Shown: positions 11,268 through 34,689, counted from the stretch's first letter. The stretch: 39,285 nucleotides of DNA from Promethearchaeota archaeon (GCA_011364975.1 RDOE01000027.1:1-39285), one strand, 5' to 3'. The notes: generated by a model not told the origin, from the letters alone. A program made the numbers and translations.

Positions 11268-11699
11268 TCAAAGAATTTTTTCACATTCTTCATTGACTAT
11301 TTTTATAGTACTATTAAAATCTTGCCACCAATCTTGACCTTGTTGAGCAACTAACATCGCATCCCTTTTATTGGTATCTAAGCACCTAATCTCATCTTTT
11401 TGAGCCTTAACCTTCTCTTTCCATATCTGACTAAATATGTTTTGTAGATTTACCTTAACTTTCTTTAATAATTCTTCATAAGTCACCGACACGTCTTCTT
11501 TTTTCTGTAATTTTTGGAGTTGGTCAAACTTCACTTTCTCTTTAGCTCGATTTAAATCACCACAATTAATTTTAACGGAAAAAGGATTTTCTTTTCCATA
11601 TTTACAATACTTTTGAATTTCACATGTAGAGCAATAACTTTCAAAACTAATCAAATAATCTTCCAATCCAATTATTGAATAATTTAAAACTTCAGGCAT
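11268..11699 (-). CDS. Hypothetical protein with a Cys cluster (CxxC-x5-C)
   Basis: 143-aa ORF with protein-like composition and YCSTCEIQKYC; no family recognised. Confidence 0.7.
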   Translation of the reverse strand: MPEVLNYSIIGLEDYLISFESYCSTCEIQKYCKYGKENPFSVKINCGDLNRAKEKVKFDQLQKLQKKEDVSVTYEELLKKVKVNLQNIFSQIWKEKVKAQKDEIRCLDTNKRDAMLVAQQGQDWWQDFNSTIKIVNEECEKIL

Positions 11700-11933
11700 A
11701 TAAATTTTCTAATTAAACCTTTATAAAAAGGATCCTCCTTTATTTATAATGAACTTTAAATTAGAATCTTTTCGTTATTTAGATATTAATATTGCTTATC
11801 TTATAATAAACGAAAAATTAGAAAAGCGTTTTTATATCAGATTTTAAAGATTAAATCTTATTTCAAAAAATTTTTTAATCATTTATTATTAAAATATTAA
11901 ACGTAAAGTGTTTTAAGAATGGGAATGACGCTT

Positions 11934-12037
11934 GGGAGAGCAAATTCCTCATTACGAGGTATCTCTCCAATGGCTTAGCCTGGTATAGCGCACGGCTGAT
12001 AACCGTGAGGTCGGGGGTTCGAAGCCCCCCTTTCCCA
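11934..12037 (+). tRNA. tRNA-Ile(GAU) with a 30-nt intron (11941-11970) between nucleotides 7 and 8
   Basis: Exon 1 GGGAGAG pairs with CTTTCCC (12030-12036), discriminator A. D arm GCTT-AGCCTGGTA-TAGC; anticodon arm CACGG-CTGATAA-CCGTG (GAT 11998-12000); T arm GGGGG-TTCGAAG-CCCCC. Confidence 0.85.
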
Positions 12038-12162
12038 TAATATTCCATAACTTAATATTCAAATTTTTACTAATTTTGAGATAGATATTATTTTTACCAA
12101 AAATATAAAAATTTCAGATTTAGAAAATAACAAATCACTCCAATAATTTTTTAATTTATTAA

Positions 12163-12756
12163 ATGAAAACTATAATTATCTCGGGAACTCCTGGAACTGG
12201 AAAAACTAGTGTTTCAAAATTAATTTTAAAAGCATTAAATGCCAAACTAATAACACTTAATGAACTAGTCATCAAAGAAGGGTTAATTCTCGGTTATGAT
12301 GAAATAAGAGAGACTTCAATTATCAATAAGAGAAAAATACTTAGGCGAATCAAAAGTTTAATTAGCCAATATAAAAAAGATACTATAAAATATCTCATAA
12401 TTGAAAGCCATTTTTCTGATATAATTCCAAATAGATATATAGATTATGCAATAGTATTAAGATGTGACCCCGATGAATTATTTAAGAGGTTAGAAAAAAG
12501 AGGCTATAGAAAGGAAAAAATAATAGAAAATGTTCAGTCTGAAATTTTAGGTAACTGCGCAAACTATATTATTAACAAAGGATTAAAAAAGCCAGTTTTG
12601 GAAATTGACACATCATGTAAAAAAGTTGAAGATATTGCTAAAATCGTTGTAGATTTGATTGTTTTAAGAATTGATAGTAGAGGATATGAGATAGGAAAAA
12701 TTGATTGGCTCGAGAAACTATATTATAAAAATCGGTTAAAAGAATATTTTGATTAG
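12163..12756 (+). CDS. Adenylate kinase AK6/Fap7 family
   Basis: IIISGTPGTGKT P-loop, IIESH motif, VLRCDP..L..RL..RGY..KIIENVQSE. Confidence 0.92.
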   Translation: MKTIIISGTPGTGKTSVSKLILKALNAKLITLNELVIKEGLILGYDEIRETSIINKRKILRRIKSLISQYKKDTIKYLIIESHFSDIIPNRYIDYAIVLRCDPDELFKRLEKRGYRKEKIIENVQSEILGNCANYIINKGLKKPVLEIDTSCKKVEDIAKIVVDLIVLRIDSRGYEIGKIDWLEKLYYKNRLKEYFD

Positions 12757-14431: not shown

Positions 14432-14878
14432 ATGAACGTTTTAGATACTATCACTGCTTATGGAAACCCATTGGTAAGATGTATCCACAAGACAACAATA
14501 GAATTAACAAAGGATAATTTTTTGACAGAAAAAGGAACTTGTATTCTAGGGATAAATGCTTCCAAAGCTTGCTCAGATCTTAATAAATCATTAAAGGAAA
14601 AAATAAAACTCGGGGTAGCAATAAAAATCACTCTTAAAGCTGACGACGTGAAAGAAACTTTTATCGGATATGGAAATAAAAGATTAACATTAAAAAGTAA
14701 AAAAGATATTGTTTTTAGAAAAAGTAATTACATCTGTGATAGAACGGTCCTGATAAATTGTACCAAAGCGTCACGTGATCTCAATAGAGCATTAATTGAA
14801 AAATTATTTGACCATAACAAAAAACTAATCGTGATTTTCCAAGAACTAAAAGACGTTGGAAGAACAAATGAGAGATAA
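14432..14878 (+). CDS. DUF371 family protein
   Basis: AYGNP.V...HKTTIELTKD..LT.KGTCILGINASK, DIVFRKSNYICDRT. Confidence 0.9.
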   Translation: MNVLDTITAYGNPLVRCIHKTTIELTKDNFLTEKGTCILGINASKACSDLNKSLKEKIKLGVAIKITLKADDVKETFIGYGNKRLTLKSKKDIVFRKSNYICDRTVLINCTKASRDLNRALIEKLFDHNKKLIVIFQELKDVGRTNER

Positions 14879-16019
14879 ATCGAGTTATATAAAAATCGAA
14901 AAAATTTGGGCTCATAAACTACTCCAAGTTTTAAAGAAAGAATTTCGAAATAAGATTGAATTAGATAGAAAAAGAAAAGTATTATATGAAAATAATTATG
15001 TTTTATTTCCAATTCATCATAATGCATTAAAAAATAAACAGTTTAAACAAATTTTAAATAAACAATTTGAATGGCAGGTCGTACTTAGGAAATCTGTCCT
15101 AAGTATTCAAAGTAAGACCAGATCTTTAAATAATACTTTTTCTACTGAATTACCTAAAAAACTCAAGAAATTGGTCCCTCGGTCTTATGACATTATCGGA
15201 GATATTGCGATATTGGAATTTGAACAAAGTGATGCCCTCTCTAAGGAAAAATATGATAAATTAAAAAAACAAATAGCTGAAAAATTAATGAATATAAATA
15301 AAACAATAATTAAAGTATTCGAAAAAAAAAGTGAGGTTAAAGGGCTTTATCGCTTAAGAGATCTTAAAATTTTATCTGGTGAAGACAATTCCGAAACCAT
15401 TCATAAGGAAAATAAATGCCAATTTAAATTGGATATAAAAAAAGTGTATTTCTCCCCACGACTAGTCCTTGAAAGAAAAAGAATTTCTATGTTGGATTAT
15501 AAAGAAGGTGAGAAAATCATTGACTTATTCGCAGGTGTTGGTCCATTTTCTATTCAAATTGCTAAGCATCATAATGTTGTTGTTAACGCTTTCGATGTTA
15601 ATCCTGATGCTTTTTATTACTTATTAGAAAATCTTGAAATGAATAAAATTAAGGGAAAAATCAGCGCTTATTTGCTTAATGTTTTAGACCTCCTGAATCC
15701 TTTAAATGAAATAGGATTAACTCTTAAAAGTAAAGCGGAAAGGATTATAATGAATTTACCTGAAAATGCTTTAGATTACATTAGAGTTGCATGTTTTTTA
15801 ATGCAAGATTCGGGTGGTATCATTCATATTTACCAATTTTCTGAGAAACCTAACTCCATTAAAAAAAGTATCCAAAAAGTAGATTTAGAATTAACTAAGA
15901 ATGGATGGCTAATTGAGAAAGTAATAAATGCAAAAGTGGTTAAACCCTTTTCTCCAAAAGCAGATTTAACAATACTCGATTTAAAAATAAAGAAAATGCA
16001 GAACTTAATTGCTTTTTAG
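14868..16019 (+). CDS. trm5: tRNA (guanine37-N1)-methyltransferase Trm5 family
   Basis: SYDIIGDIAI, YRLR, TIHKEN, VYFSPRL..ER.RI, DLFAGVGPF, IIMNLP. ATG at 14868 is preferred over TTG at 14856. Confidence 0.88.
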   Translation: MRDKSSYIKIEKIWAHKLLQVLKKEFRNKIELDRKRKVLYENNYVLFPIHHNALKNKQFKQILNKQFEWQVVLRKSVLSIQSKTRSLNNTFSTELPKKLKKLVPRSYDIIGDIAILEFEQSDALSKEKYDKLKKQIAEKLMNINKTIIKVFEKKSEVKGLYRLRDLKILSGEDNSETIHKENKCQFKLDIKKVYFSPRLVLERKRISMLDYKEGEKIIDLFAGVGPFSIQIAKHHNVVVNAFDVNPDAFYYLLENLEMNKIKGKISAYLLNVLDLLNPLNEIGLTLKSKAERIIMNLPENALDYIRVACFLMQDSGGIIHIYQFSEKPNSIKKSIQKVDLELTKNGWLIEKVINAKVVKPFSPKADLTILDLKIKKMQNLIAF

Positions 16020-16108
16020 TATTAAAGAACATCCTGCTTAAGATTTTATCCTTTTAATCACCTGATAAAGAGAAGAATATTGAACCAAACATTTAATCTA
16101 TATGAAAA

Positions 16109-16183
16109 TGGATCTGGCAGGATTTGAACCTGCGATCTTCGGATTAGAAGTCCGACGCCATATCCATGCTTGGCTACAGATCC
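16109..16183 (-). tRNA. tRNA-Arg(UCU), intronless
   Basis: Reverse complement GGATCTG TA GCCA AGCATGGATA TGGC G TCGGA CTTCTAA TCCGA AGATC GCAGG TTCAAAT CCTGC CAGATCC A folds as a complete cloverleaf. Confidence 0.97.
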
Positions 16184-16356
16184 ATCTTTAGGATGAGTAA
16201 TAATAAGAATTTACATTTTCTAAAAAATTTTTGCTTAATTGCCAAAAAATGACCACAAATTAATAATTCGTTAATACCATTTTTTTTTAATTTTATCTTC
16301 TTATAATTTATTGTATTTAGAAAAAATCTAGTATCTTTCTAAATTCAATTTATCGT

Positions 16357-17112
16357 TTGAGAGGTAAAGCAGTGCTAAAAAAAAAGATTTTCATCCATCA
16401 AAACATACCTTATGCGTTTAATTGGAACATAAGTCACCATAAAGCTAAACTCTCTCAATTAAGCCTCCGAAGGGAGCAATTTCTAAAACTTGGCACGTAT
16501 TTTAAAAGAATTTATCAAGGACAAATACCAAATAATCTTTTTAACACTAGAGAATATCATAGGATCTCACAATTTAAGATAAAAGGAATGAAACTTAGTT
16601 TTCTTTCAAGTTTTGGTAAAAAATTAATTCGAGAAGAAAAAATTATATATTTAGATTCAACATCAGCTTTACCTAGATACGCCCAAACTGTTTTTCAAAG
16701 TTTCAAGAATAGTGAAATTGGAAGATTGCCTGGGCACGATCCTATCCTTAAATATATTTTAATTAAGGATAAAAATTCCTTAGCAATTGAAATTCCAATT
16801 TGGAAGAAGTTTTATAATACCTACCTGACAGGACATATTGATCTTATCCAAATTCAAGATAATATAATTAAAGTAATTGATTATAAACCCGAAGGGAATT
16901 TCATTTATTCTTTACCTCAAGTTGCCACTTATGGCCTTTTAGTGAAATCTAAATTTAATTTAGATGAAGTCAAATGTATTTCATTTAATAAAAAAGAAGC
17001 ATGGGAATTTGATCCTTCAATTCTTTTAAATGAAGTGAGAGAATATTTATTAGCTCAAGGAAATCATGAAAGAATCTGGGAAAATTATATCAATCGTAAT
17101 TATTCTACTTAA
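16357..17112 (+). CDS. PD-(D/E)xK (RecB-like) nuclease domain protein
   Basis: AIEIPIW...LTGHIDLI...VIDYKP...QVATYG motifs; no Cas4-type Cys cluster; start position uncertain (TTG). Confidence 0.8.
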   Translation: MRGKAVLKKKIFIHQNIPYAFNWNISHHKAKLSQLSLRREQFLKLGTYFKRIYQGQIPNNLFNTREYHRISQFKIKGMKLSFLSSFGKKLIREEKIIYLDSTSALPRYAQTVFQSFKNSEIGRLPGHDPILKYILIKDKNSLAIEIPIWKKFYNTYLTGHIDLIQIQDNIIKVIDYKPEGNFIYSLPQVATYGLLVKSKFNLDEVKCISFNKKEAWEFDPSILLNEVREYLLAQGNHERIWENYINRNYST

Positions 17113-17371
17113 AGCTTTTCTTATTTGAGTTATCTTCTTTTTTCTCTTCTTTTGTAATAATATGCTTTTTTAGGATGAAAAAGCTTAAGACTAAAGCTAT
17201 GATCTCAACAAAAATACCCACAAATGAGATGATAGTTCCATTTAAGTCCAAAAATCTTAAATATATAGCACATAATAATCCCGAAGATGCAAGTAAAAAA
17301 ACAATTACTCCGTTAACTATCTGAGAAAATGAATCCTTAATATAACCGAGCTCTTTTTTAATCCACGACAT
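17105..17371 (-). CDS. Small membrane protein (2 TM)
   Basis: Two hydrophobic stretches and a charged C-terminal tail; same strand as the two large upstream ORFs. Confidence 0.75.
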   Translation of the reverse strand: MSWIKKELGYIKDSFSQIVNGVIVFLLASSGLLCAIYLRFLDLNGTIISFVGIFVEIIALVLSFFILKKHIITKEEKKEDNSNKKSFK

Positions 17372-17469
17372 AATTTATAGCATTAAAAATAATGAAATTT
17401 GATTTTAAGTATTGTAAATTAAAAAAAACACAATAATTTTAATAGTTTTGTGATTGAAAAGTTTGGAAT

Positions 17470-19881
17470 TTAGCTATTTCGACGCTTTTGTTTGAACTTA
17501 ATATATAAAGCCTTATTTAATAATTTCCCAATTTTATTTACGGTCTGTTTACCTATTTCATATCGTTCCCCATCAAGAATTTTCTCAAAATCATTTTGAT
17601 TTAATTTAGGTCCTAATCTTCCCTGTAATACAGAAAAAAATGTTTCTAATATTTCTTCTTTTATGGATTGTTCCTCGGGAAAATTCATCTCAGGTACATA
17701 TAACCGAATTTTTTCTATTGAAAAAAGAAAAAATTCACATATTTTATTATAAGGTCCACCTTCAAGTTCGCTATGAATTTTTATATTCTCTGTAGCAATT
17801 TTAGTATCTTTTTCTTGCCAATAAAATTGGTTAGGATTTATACCAGGGCGAGTTATTCCAATTAATGCTGAAGTAATCCTACGTTCGATCCAGTTAAACG
17901 TATTTTCTTCATGTTTTTCCCGTATTTCGACTTTCTTTTCGGCTTCTAATTTTTTGTGTGTTTCCTCAATACTCTTTACTTTTAAGATTTCTGCTTCATC
18001 ATAATGTTCAAACCTTTTAATGATATCATAAGCAAGGCAATAAGAAATAGGTGATATCAAATCTGCTTTTAATTTTAATGGTATTATATCTTCATAAATA
18101 TAGCTTATATTATTTCTTAGCTTTACTATGCTGCTATTTAAAGAATCATTTGTCAATCTTGATAAAATAAAGCCGTTCACAAGGAAAACTTGATTATTTG
18201 CATTAAGAACAACAACCAATTCATTTTGTCTTTTTATTACTCGATTAATGCATAATTCTTCTAATTTAATCCAACTCCAATCTTCCTTATCAATATTTTT
18301 TTCAGTTCTTTTTAAAGCAGTAAGGAACAATGTTTTATCATTTGAAACCTTAGCGAATAACTCGATAATTCTACTTAATTGCCTTATAATTTTGGAAAGA
18401 ATATAATAAAAAATATCAAGAGCAATGTTATTTAATATATTTTCAAAATTAATTAGGGTAATAATTTGTAAATAATTTTTTAATTTTAAATCATGAAAAA
18501 ATATTTTTTCTATTATTTGTTTCTTTCGAACAAATTCTCTTAAATCATTTATCGAAATATTCAATTCCTTTTCTAAAATTCTCCAAACTTGTTGAAAATC
18601 TGCTTCATCTCGATGAATTAATTTAAAGAGATCGAAATCTGACATATCTTTTGAGGTGCTAATAATGTCCAAATAGGGTTGTTTTAAACTACATAGAAAC
18701 TTTTTAGCTAAATATACTGGATTTTTTTTAAGATCATTTAGCAATATTAGATCTTGAACCTTAATATTGTATCTAATCATATTTTTCTTTATAGTATCAA
18801 GTATATTCTCGTCTATATCTATTAGATGGAGTATATCTTTTATTCCCCGCCTATTAATCAAAAATATAATTTCATCAAAGCTGGAATCGTTAAGACTCTG
18901 TAAAAAATAAATTAGATCATTGGGGGATTTTTTAAGCTTACTGATTAATTCTTTTTTCAAATCAAATAATACTTTCCCTTCAAAATCTTCAAAACTTTCT
19001 TTTTCTTTTAAAGCTTCTTCGATTAGGGATAATATTCTTTTTTTATAATTATTCCCTTCAATATAAGACTTAAGGCCATAAAGTGAGATAGGATATTTAT
19101 TTAACTCATAATCTAATATTTTTCTTTTAATCATTCTTAATGACATAGTCTGAGTTTGAAGTTCTTTATAAGATTTAAACTCAAAATTAGTTTGAATCTT
19201 ATTAATAAGACGATTTAATATTGATAATTCAAGAAATTTATCTTCCTTTTCTTCACGTTCTAATTTCTTTTCAATGTCAATCGACAAATCCTTTAACCCC
19301 GAACTCTCTTCTAAAATATCTAGTTTAATATCTTCAGTAAATCCTATTAGGTCTCCAATAAAATCATAGAAATAGAAAGATGGGTATCTTAAGATAATAC
19401 TTAATAATTCCTGTTCGATTTTTTGCTCAATGTCAGTGAGCTCTTTTACCCTTTGAATGCCTTGATAATCATTTTCTCCTTCCTTTATTAATAAGTTTAA
19501 AAAAAGATTTTCAATCTCTATTACTTTGTTTAATAGATTAATCTCTAAATTAAATGAATCTTTTAAAGTTAATTCGAGTTCATTCATTAAAGTTCCTTTT
19601 TCGTGCAGTTCAGTTTCCAACGTTGTTTGATCTGAAAATTTCTCAGTGTCTATTTGAAATTTAACCTTTATCCCCATATAATTATATAAATGCACTGCCG
19701 CAGTTCCAATTAAAAGATTATTTATTGAGGGATCATTTTGTATCAACTCGAATATCATTTTTTTATCTGCTTCTCTTTTAAGATGTGAAATTATTAAATC
19801 TATTGTTTGAAAATACCTAGAAGTACTTTCAGCGGCAATAGTTCTCCTTCTAATACCACTTATTTTCCTTTTCTTAACCAA
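17470..19881 (-). CDS. Large hypothetical, predominantly alpha-helical protein (803 aa)
   Basis: Long ORF rich in E/K/L/I with coiled-coil-like segments; start overlaps the upstream gene by 22 nt. Confidence 0.85.
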   Translation of the reverse strand: MVKKRKISGIRRRTIAAESTSRYFQTIDLIISHLKREADKKMIFELIQNDPSINNLLIGTAAVHLYNYMGIKVKFQIDTEKFSDQTTLETELHEKGTLMNELELTLKDSFNLEINLLNKVIEIENLFLNLLIKEGENDYQGIQRVKELTDIEQKIEQELLSIILRYPSFYFYDFIGDLIGFTEDIKLDILEESSGLKDLSIDIEKKLEREEKEDKFLELSILNRLINKIQTNFEFKSYKELQTQTMSLRMIKRKILDYELNKYPISLYGLKSYIEGNNYKKRILSLIEEALKEKESFEDFEGKVLFDLKKELISKLKKSPNDLIYFLQSLNDSSFDEIIFLINRRGIKDILHLIDIDENILDTIKKNMIRYNIKVQDLILLNDLKKNPVYLAKKFLCSLKQPYLDIISTSKDMSDFDLFKLIHRDEADFQQVWRILEKELNISINDLREFVRKKQIIEKIFFHDLKLKNYLQIITLINFENILNNIALDIFYYILSKIIRQLSRIIELFAKVSNDKTLFLTALKRTEKNIDKEDWSWIKLEELCINRVIKRQNELVVVLNANNQVFLVNGFILSRLTNDSLNSSIVKLRNNISYIYEDIIPLKLKADLISPISYCLAYDIIKRFEHYDEAEILKVKSIEETHKKLEAEKKVEIREKHEENTFNWIERRITSALIGITRPGINPNQFYWQEKDTKIATENIKIHSELEGGPYNKICEFFLFSIEKIRLYVPEMNFPEEQSIKEEILETFFSVLQGRLGPKLNQNDFEKILDGERYEIGKQTVNKIGKLLNKALYIKFKQKRRNS

Positions 19882-29402: not shown

Positions 29403-29819
29403 CTAGTTTACTTGAACTAAATACATATAAATTACTAAAAAGACTAATCCTACCAAACTAAAAAATAGGACTAATGGATTTCTAAATCCTTGGATAAGAG
29501 AAATAGCAAAGACCACGATCACCAATTTAAAATCTAGAGGTTTACCCGTAAGTTCCTTATAATTACCAATGCTAACCATCATAAAAATAAAGAATAAAAG
29601 GATTAGAACAACCTTAAAAATGATATCAAAAATTTGAAAAACTAAATTATCATTAATAAAAATTATAATAATTTCACCATTAACTAAAATCGAAATAATT
29701 AGAAATAAGCCCCCAATTATTGCCGAAATAATAACAGATTTAAAGGCAAATTTATCGTTAAAATCTTGTTTTTCCTTATTATTTTGAATTAAATCATTCC
29801 CTTTTTTTATTTTTGACAT
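29403..29819 (-). CDS. Hypothetical membrane protein (about 4 TM)
   Basis: Four hydrophobic segments; starts 1 nt after the stop of the upstream gene. Confidence 0.8.
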   Translation of the reverse strand: MSKIKKGNDLIQNNKEKQDFNDKFAFKSVIISAIIGGLFLIISILVNGEIIIIFINDNLVFQIFDIIFKVVLILLFFIFMMVSIGNYKELTGKPLDFKLVIVVFAISLIQGFRNPLVLFFSLVGLVFLVIYMYLVQVN

Positions 29820-34245: not shown

Positions 34246-34689
34246 ATGTCGGCCTTGAAAATAGATAAATTTGACCAAATCGGAATCCTTGTTAAGGATA
34301 TAGAAAAAGCAGCTGATTTTTACAAAAAGTATTTCAACTTTAAAGGACCTATCAATGTAGTTGAACAGTGGTCAGATGTGGAGTATAAAGGTAAAAAGAT
34401 ACGATTTAAGATGAAAAAGATAATGCAAACAATAAATAATATACAATTTGAAGTCGTAGAACTGTTAGAATCAACAGGCGATCATTTATACTCAGAGTTT
34501 CTAATTGAGGGAAATGAAGGATTGCATCATTTGGGTCTTTATACAAAAAATGCTGAAGAGATTATAAAAGAATTTAAAAATAATTATAATATTGACGTGA
34601 TTCAAACCGGGAAGGCTGGAAAAGTAAATTTCTTCTATCTAAATACGAAAAAGCTCTTAGGTTATTATCTTGAATTAATTTCATTTTAA
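34246..34689 (+). CDS. VOC family protein (methylmalonyl-CoA epimerase/glyoxalase-like)
   Basis: DQIGILVKDIEKA..FY, QFEVVE, EFL...EGLHHLG, YLELI. Confidence 0.85.
   Translation: MSALKIDKFDQIGILVKDIEKAADFYKKYFNFKGPINVVEQWSDVEYKGKKIRFKMKKIMQTINNIQFEVVELLESTGDHLYSEFLIEGNEGLHHLGLYTKNAEEIIKEFKNNYNIDVIQTGKAGKVNFFYLNTKKLLGYYLELISF

Follow-up and report, generated by a model that had tools for sequence, protein, structure and literature searches.

A predicted 30-nt intron between bases 7 and 8 of an archaeal tRNA-Ile(GAU) gene, accompanied by a conserved acceptor-strand copy in the leader

The stretch of DNA analyzed here, hereafter the window, is a 39,285-nt contig (RDOE01000027.1; contig C125 of assembly GCA_011364975.1) of a Promethearchaeota archaeon whose genome comprises 3.74 Mb in 200 contigs, with 30.6% G+C and 99% completeness. 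At positions 11934–12037 of the plus strand it carries a tRNA-Ile(GAU) gene in which a 30-nt insert (11941–11970) follows base 7 of the tRNA. Judged from sequence comparison, this is very probably a working gene, and the insert an intron between bases 7 and 8 that would be removed by protein splicing of the EndA type. We assign the intron to a known class, the protein-spliced archaeal tRNA introns with a relaxed bulge–helix–bulge (BHB) motif, four of whose five listed defining features were found. It is unusual in that it lies at the acceptor/D junction, builds the central helix of its splice motif from the acceptor strand, and is accompanied by a conserved copy of that strand in the leader.

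The interrupted gene and its uninterrupted orthologues

The original prediction, made from the sequence of the window by itself, had described a BHB-like intron at 7/8, and its layout of the gene holds. Exon 1 (GGGAGAG, tRNA bases 1–7) occupies 11934–11940, the intron 11941–11970, and exon 2 (tRNA bases 8–73) 11971–12037, all on the plus strand. From U8 onward the cloverleaf is intact: exon 2 holds the D arm, the anticodon arm (CACGG-CTGATAA-CCGTG, with GAT at 11998–12000), the T arm, the 3′ acceptor strand (CTTTCCC, 12030–12036), and the discriminator A (12037), after which no CCA is encoded. The TCTCCAA directly before U8 cannot pair with CTTTCCC; the matching strand is exon 1, separated from exon 2 by exactly 30 nt and able to form six Watson–Crick pairs and one G-U pair with it.

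Comparison with relatives supports the intron. A DNA search of 60 relatives recovered 30 loci, in 18 of which GGGAGAG abuts U8; the 30-nt insert is present in 9 (the window's own locus, refetched, and 8 relatives), and the remaining 3, at contig ends or with a second insert, lack the anchor. Pattern searches over 42 genomes of the genus identified the insert in 11 and the uninterrupted junction in 21, with no genome holding both; the 10 with neither form are mostly incomplete assemblies. In the uninterrupted syntenic orthologues the junction matches the predicted one letter for letter, and their 5′ strand is the same GGGAGAG that is invariant in all 11 intron-bearing genes. Both forms occupy the same locus between matching flanking genes: a gene for a 143-aa protein adjoins most copies of either form upstream, and an AAA_18 kinase-like gene and a tRNA-guanine transglycosylase (TGT) gene (PF01702) lie downstream of both. 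The Ile(GAU) genes inspected in other genera of the order or class are uninterrupted at 7/8, and some carry inserts in the D loop, anticodon stem, or T loop.

Conservation within the intron-bearing set differs from part to part. Mean pairwise identity among the 11 genes is 1.0 for exon 1, 0.83 for the leader element described below, 0.54 for the intron, and 0.45 for the spacer between element and exon 1, compared with 0.38 and 0.35 in the 40-nt upstream and downstream flanks. Exon 2 is 100% identical in 26 loci over its first 40 nt, the anchor of the comparison, and shows one T-loop change in genome G020. All 11 introns are exactly 30 nt long. In the window genome the exon border is fixed, since the intron begins with C and ends with A, so that only a border at 7/8 restores the orthologous tRNA; in 4 relatives the last intron base is G, and a border at 6/7 would yield the same product. 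Contigs from three other studies span 11921–11971 with no indel (X4 record 9, covering 11700–12300; X5 record 10, 11700–12037; X14 record 1, 11700–12000), and the insert is therefore not an assembly error, an outcome that the original prediction had named as fatal to it.

Separately, one intron-bearing gene, that of G024 (L061, G024:C20, ~1590–1625 of the locus), has a second insert of 34 nt after the anticodon stem, whose border is ambiguous because CCGTG is repeated. A reverse-transcription signature was considered and rejected, as CCA is encoded after the discriminator in only one of the 11 genes, that of G003 (L060, G003:C1). Transposition of the intron within the genome was likewise rejected: a blastn-short search of the whole genome with the 30-nt intron returned only chance matches of 10–16 nt.

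The predicted splice motif is fully placed in the window gene. Exon bases 2–5 (GGAG) form all four pairs of a central helix with CTCC (11965–11968) near the 3′ end of the intron. A6 and G7 of exon 1 and the first intron base, C (11941), make up the 5′ bulge AG^C (11939–11941), and the last two intron bases, AA (11969–11970), join U8 in the 3′ bulge AA^U (11969–11971); a BHB cut falls after the second bulge base. Between them, the intron stem AAATTCCTC/GAGGTATCT (11942–11950/11956–11964, loop 11951–11955) forms 7 of its 9 pairs. On the exon side, GCT of the spacer (11930–11932) can pair with G9 G10 C11 (11972–11974) as an outer helix at the 3′ splice site, and this GCT/GGC helix appears in the minimum-energy fold of the window gene, interrupted by one or two unpaired bases. 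The central helix, both bulges, the stem with its two mismatches, and the imperfect outer helix thus all lie where they had been drawn from the window sequence.

These pairings are retained across the intron-bearing genes. The central helix, between exon bases 2–5 and intron bases 25–28, is paired in 42 of 44 cells (four of four in nine genes and three of four in two), the hairpin in 87 of 99, and the exon-side helix, in which the last spacer bases meet G9 G10 (C11), has 2–3 bp in all 11. The intron-side helix is good and the exon-side helix short and discontinuous; the strict hBHBh′ motif is therefore not formed, and the motif is of a relaxed type (HBh′ or bulge–helix–loop, BHL) with a good 5′ half-site. 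Covariation was assessed in a 10-sequence alignment from which G024 was omitted because of its second insert. The named structure is paired in 90.5% of cells against 83.9% in shuffles, with none of 500 shuffles reaching the observed value, and structures slid by 1–3 columns are paired in 38–74%. For the hairpin specifically, the covariation score is 0.340 against 0.210 in shuffles (0 of 500 as high) and 0.06–0.17 after sliding by 1–3 columns, and 7 of its 9 pairs show changes on both sides.

The genome encodes the machinery that such splicing would use. We identified two EndA paralogues (contigs C126 and C191), 200 and 205 aa in length, each with both Pfam domains of the endonuclease (PF01974 and PF02778), one catalytic and one N-terminal. 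One is closest by sequence to PDB chains 3p1z_B, 3ajv_B, 2cv8_A, and 2zyz_B, a group that we take to include the catalytic subunits of crenarchaeal two-subunit enzymes, and the other to 1a79_A and 5x89_A. RtcB (553.7 bits) and an archaeal RNase P RNA are also present. Interruption of tRNA genes is common in this genome: 12 of 21 ARAGORN tRNA calls contain an intron, and in 20 of 29 T-arm-anchored tRNA-like genes the 5′ strand lies 75–155 nt upstream of the T arm rather than 46–60 nt, with a commonest excess of ~30 nt as counted from the listing of genes with an intact T arm. Further partial Rfam tRNA matches were recovered, several with inserts in the D or T loop. This heavy interruption agrees with what parts of two sources report for Asgard tRNA genes (PMC11291895; preprint 10.64898/2026.10.13.758758).

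Two other genes deserve mention in this connection. On contig C106 of G000, a tRNA-Ile(UAU)-like gene (29437–29640, plus strand) has two inserts, one of ~60 nt between bases 7 and 12 with an ambiguous border (TAGCT at both ends) and one in the anticodon loop. On the same contig, a tRNA-Sec(UCA)-like gene (34349–34460, minus strand) has ~40 nt between a 9-nt 5′ acceptor strand and the D arm, and may represent another insert at the acceptor/D junction.

As had been anticipated, standard finders do not recognize the tRNA-Ile gene. ARAGORN made no call there, reporting only a tRNA-Arg in the window, and missed the gene genome-wide as well with introns allowed; it also made no call at three intron-bearing loci tested. 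The Rfam tRNA model covers only 11969–12032 (model positions 6–65, 41.9 bits), and at gathering thresholds the window yields two tRNA matches only, with no group I/II intron or other catalogued RNA. An uninterrupted orthologue, by comparison, is called by ARAGORN as tRNA-Ile(gat) of 74 nt and matched by Rfam over model positions 1–71 at 64.3 bits. Neither a DNA search nor an anticodon-arm scan found a second Ile(GAU) gene in the genome. The ARAGORN call "tRNA-Ile(aat)" on contig C76, considered as a further Ile copy, was rejected, being by inspection a Trp(CCA)-like gene with an intron.

The leader element and its proposed role

Directly 5′ of exon 1, all 11 intron-bearing genes carry the element GGGRADG followed by a 6–7-nt spacer, and nothing similar was found beside the gene in the uninterrupted alleles examined. 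In the window, the element (D, GGGAATG, 11921–11927, plus strand) is a degenerate copy of tRNA bases 1–7 that can pair with 12030–12036, and the spacer (ACGCTT, 11928–11933, plus strand) is a degenerate copy of bases 8–13. In G062 and G007, element plus spacer match bases 1–13 at 12 of 13 positions, and the segment therefore reads as a duplicate of the tRNA 5′ end that stops exactly at mature base 1. Its variation follows the opposite strand: G is constant at the four positions facing C66, C70, C71, and C72, and the three facing U67–U69 are A or G, apart from a T at one of them in three genomes. Pairing with bases 66–72 extends to 74 of 77 cells. Among the tRNA genes with an intact T arm in its own genome, only the window gene has two tandem candidate 5′ strands. 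In a region that is A/T-rich throughout, a TATA-like, A/T-rich stretch read from the sequence at 11886–11901 (plus strand), ~20–35 nt upstream of the element, is a possible promoter; transcripts from it would begin at or near 11921.

Predicted folds change with the leader. Given no hint, RNAalifold paired exon 1 with the intron and the element with the 3′ acceptor strand, an arrangement also present, when the leader is included, in the single-sequence minimum-energy folds of 9 of 10 genes; in folds lacking the leader, it is exon 1 that occupies the acceptor strand, at the cost of the central helix. With the native leader, the probability of the exon–intron helix is ≥0.5 in 8 of 10 genes, and that of exon 1 pairing with 66–72 is about 0 (0.13 in G012). 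When the element is blocked, the former falls to ≤0.15 and the latter rises to 0.6–1.0 in 9 of 10 genes each, the helix in G026 staying at 0.76; when the leader is removed, the values are ≤0.06 and 0.6–1.0 in 10 of 10.

These results suggest a mechanism for the maturation of the tRNA. In the precursor, exon bases 2–5 would pair with CTCC near the intron 3′ end, presenting the 3-nt bulges AG^C and AA^U four bp apart, flanked on one side by the intron hairpin and on the other by a short helix between the leader and bases 9–11. The two-paralogue splicing endonuclease would cut both bulges, RtcB would join the exons, and RNase P would remove the leader. The element would act as a decoy in this scheme: by occupying the 3′ acceptor strand first, it would free exon 1 for the splice motif, and it would keep the 7-nt exon 1 attached to the body of the tRNA until the exons are joined. 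Exon 1 would then displace the element and RNase P would cut before G1; exon 1 might win the acceptor strand through tertiary structure or through the irreversibility of RNase P cleavage. We regard this decoy mechanism, in which the leader element stands in for exon 1 on the acceptor strand, as evenly poised between right and wrong. It also modifies the original prediction, which had splicing precede formation of the acceptor stem: a surrogate acceptor stem probably forms first, through the copy of bases 1–13 that had been overlooked.

Several observations count against the spliced intron or its decoy. The sequence was located in 20 sequencing runs from 7 studies, none of which is on record as RNA. 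The outer helix has only 2–3 bp and is offset by one or two unpaired bases in all 11 genes; the central helix is reduced to three of four pairs in G020 and G018, and its probability is 0.03 in G020 and G003 even with the leader. In the window gene's own minimum-energy fold, bases 2–7 form a continuous 6-bp helix with the intron, and the 5′ bulge is therefore not the predicted optimum. The folding results are nearest-neighbour predictions throughout, and these misfold the D arm as well. For the decoy in particular, the T-U mismatch in the element of three genomes is unfavourable, and so is the balance predicted for RNA spliced in silico, where the element holds the acceptor strand at -33.4 to -37.7 kcal/mol against about -32.5 for exon 1. 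With this advantage of 1–5 kcal/mol the element would outcompete exon 1 and impede RNase P, provided that neither tertiary structure nor kinetics tips the balance towards exon 1. Finally, common descent alone could account for the link between element and intron.

One alternative we consider plausible although somewhat improbable: the intron is real and the element has no role in folding, being either a decaying footprint of the way in which the intron allele arose or a part of the promoter or initiator. Element and spacer are, after all, a plain copy of bases 1–13, the spacer half of which is decaying (identity 0.45); the element sits at the expected transcript start, downstream of the TATA-like stretch; it is predicted to compete with exon 1 once splicing is complete; and the 11 carriers may stem from a single event. 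However, the 7-nt element stands at 0.83 identity where the flanking non-coding DNA is at the random level of 0.35–0.38, and its changes, one position in three genomes excepted, preserve pairing with CUUUCCC. The uninterrupted alleles, which also require a promoter, lack the element, and the predicted fold switches once the element is blocked.

A second alternative gives the element a permanent place in the mature tRNA, as the 5′ strand of the acceptor stem, with 11928–11970 either removed as a 43-nt intron or kept as an extra arm. The element does pair with bases 66–72 as well as or better than exon 1 in 8 of 11 genomes, and it closes the cloverleaf in predicted folds. Against this, it occurs in five variants between species when other tRNA positions are fixed across the genus, and it is GGGAGAG at 11934–11940 that is invariant and identical to the uninterrupted acceptor strand. 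The central helix fits exon 1 in its 42 of 44 cells, and bases 2–5 of the element pair less well by inspection. Moreover, a 43-nt arm at the 7/8 junction would disrupt the U8 tertiary core of the tRNA. We judge this arrangement very unlikely.

A pseudogene or assembly artefact, with the working Ile(GAU) tRNA supplied from elsewhere, is largely refuted and barely credible: the silence of standard finders, a 200-contig draft with 6% contamination, and the chance that the scans used missed an Ile(GAU) gene interrupted by other introns speak for it, and against it stand the indel-free contigs of three other studies, the absence of both forms together from any of 42 genomes, the invariant exons and covarying intron structure, and the failure to find a second copy.

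Distribution, block exchange, and a neighbouring nuclease-like gene

To place the intron on a phylogeny, we built a tree from the two downstream proteins at 22 of 29 distinct loci, including 10 intron-bearing rows; 7 loci lacking a TGT fragment (L023, L034, L035, L037, L040, L044, and L045) and 9 duplicate fetches were dropped. The intron-bearing rows are scattered over this tree: 6 changes are needed, at least 5 of them forced by well-supported branches, and shuffled labels were as clustered in 115 of 500 trials. A single origin on the flank-gene tree is ruled out by these forced changes and by a clustering of labels no better than in shuffles.

One pair of genomes illustrates how the intron form may move. 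G015, with the intron, and G014, with none, are 93.5–93.8% identical on both sides of the locus, and a 5.2-kb segment is present in G015 only. The right edge of this segment coincides exactly with U8; the 5′ module is therefore swapped or substituted en bloc, and one boundary of the block is the invariant exon 2. Two ORFs lie within the segment (L115, G015:C222, reverse-complemented 14618–19864): one of 80 aa, zinc-ribbon-like, and one of 1211 aa, whose relatives also adjoin the uninterrupted tRNA-Ile genes of G001, G023, and G016.

Directly upstream of the leader element, 4 of the 11 intron-bearing genomes carry a nuclease-like gene in differing states: intact in G062 (709 aa), open to the contig end in G029, broken by two stops in G007, and reduced to an 88-aa remnant in G015. 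It shares a contig with none of the 21 uninterrupted tRNA-Ile genes. Neither the gene nor a remnant was found in the window genome; a remnant beside the window tRNA was rejected, as tblastn in 11601–11960 gave only chance hits (E ≥ 3), and tblastn over the whole genome gave only weak matches, to N-terminal residues 14–123 of the protein (E 0.009 and 0.054).

The protein matches no Pfam, PHROG, or NCBIfam family, and a PDB sequence search returned nothing. An AlphaFold model of its C-terminal 240 residues (pLDDT 78.5) retrieved nothing with Foldseek at E ≤ 0.001. With VIA-align, the model aligned best to 9gek_A, the RAP module of FASTKD4 (Z 8.5, 120 residues aligned, rmsd 3.8), 1cw0_A, Vsr endonuclease (Z 8.1, 133 aligned, rmsd 3.6), 3r3p_B, the catalytic domain of I-Bth0305I (Z 7.7, 98 aligned, rmsd 3.3), and 3hrl_A, a DUF559-like protein (Z 7.2, 92 aligned, rmsd 2.6), all with Z values in a range also reached by unrelated models. 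The residues E-Y-D-G-x-x-H-D are invariant in 9 family members. Given that range of Z values, we describe the gene as probably encoding a Vsr/EDxHD-like nuclease.

A paralogue of this protein (30–35% identical) lies beside a tRNA-Ser(GCU)-like gene in two genomes (L082:1625–1775, G017:C70; L083:1706–1850, G029:C94). That gene matches Rfam only at model positions 7–64 and is preceded by two candidates for its 5′ acceptor strand, GCTCGGG and GCTCAGC; as a second example of the arrangement it fell short, since its exon border could not be placed and no convincing BHB was found. The 150-nt tRNA-Ser region is 98% identical between the two species, which suggests a recently moved element.

One hypothesis that would account for the patchy pattern is a homing-like spread after which the nuclease gene decayed, the window carrying only the stripped-down unit. 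An extended proposal is that the leader copy is an obligatory decoy and clamp, which would make it possible for a protein-spliced intron to persist at the acceptor-stem junction, and that the 5′ module—promoter, decoy, exon 1, and intron, joined in some species by the Vsr/EDxHD-like nuclease gene—passes between species as a cassette. It would do so by recombination anchored in the invariant exon 2, perhaps because the nuclease cleaves alleles that lack the intron. We consider this proposal speculative and unlikely as a whole.

Other features of the neighbourhood are shared by both forms of the locus or are unrelated to it. A palindromic motif, CAAAAAATTTTTTAA (11864–11878), lies upstream of the tRNA and is conserved, at varying distances, whether or not a locus has the intron; possibly it is a shared terminator or promoter element within the divergent intergenic region. 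The 143-aa protein encoded at 11268–11699 (minus strand), which adjoins the tRNA-Ile gene across the genus, is cysteine-rich and has no Pfam match. An ordinary, uninterrupted tRNA-Arg(TCT) gene lies at 16108–16184 (minus strand; 73.2 bits).

Relation to known systems and significance

The closest known relatives of the window intron are the non-canonical BHB/BHL tRNA introns of archaea (Thermoproteales; Asgard). Like these, it is a short insert for a protein endonuclease, with two 3-nt bulges four bp apart in a motif built partly from exon, in a host where many tRNA genes are interrupted and EndA has two paralogues, and its presence varies among close relatives. Unlike them, it lies at 7/8, spends the 5′ strand of the acceptor stem in the central helix, and is accompanied by the conserved leader copy. 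One passage of PMC4090602 lists positions including 3/4, 20/21, 22/23, 25/26, 29/30, 30/31, 45/46, 53/54, 56/57, 59/60, "etc.", and the review PMC4033280 also gives positions other than 7/8. Full-text literature searches, which did not cover supplementary tables, returned no statement of a 7/8 tRNA intron and no description of a leader decoy.

Two further systems offer partial parallels. In the split and permuted tRNA genes of Nanoarchaeum, Caldivirga, Staphylothermus, Thermofilum, and Cyanidioschyzon, RNA that is later discarded likewise pairs with the precursor; according to one section of PMC3218864, this pairing lets the BHB form and keeps the pieces together. Here, in contrast, there is a single collinear transcript, and the discarded segment is proposed to take the place of exon 1 on the 3′ acceptor strand instead of supplying the long trans helix beside the motif. 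A parallel with introns associated with homing endonucleases, and with free-standing ones of the Vsr/EDxHD type (I-Bth0305I, PDB 3r3p), lies in the patchy intron and in the gene with a Vsr-like C-terminal domain that precedes the element in 4 of 11 intron-bearing relatives and survives whole, broken, or as a remnant depending on the species. The resemblance is limited in that the gene lies outside the intron, the intron is no ribozyme, the nuclease is only putative, and the window genome has neither gene nor remnant.

Asgard tRNA genes are heavily interrupted, and the locus bears on how introns arrive, a question that part of a 2026 census preprint treats as open, with none of the newly found introns there shown to be spliced (10.64898/2026.10.13.758758). 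It constitutes a natural experiment, in which 32 sister genomes have one gene at one locus and some of them possess the 30-nt intron while others lack it, and it illustrates that an essential tRNA can escape standard finders. The position of the intron is the one expected to be hardest to tolerate, because the acceptor strand is itself a component of the cutting motif. The conserved leader copy points to a simple rule by which introns of this kind could be made spliceable, and it may be the visible footprint of a gain event. If the cassette proposal were true, it would provide the first concrete route for the arrival of a BHB intron in a tRNA gene, and the duplicated bases 1–13, which stop precisely where mature base 1 of exon 1 begins, would represent the footprint of that gain.

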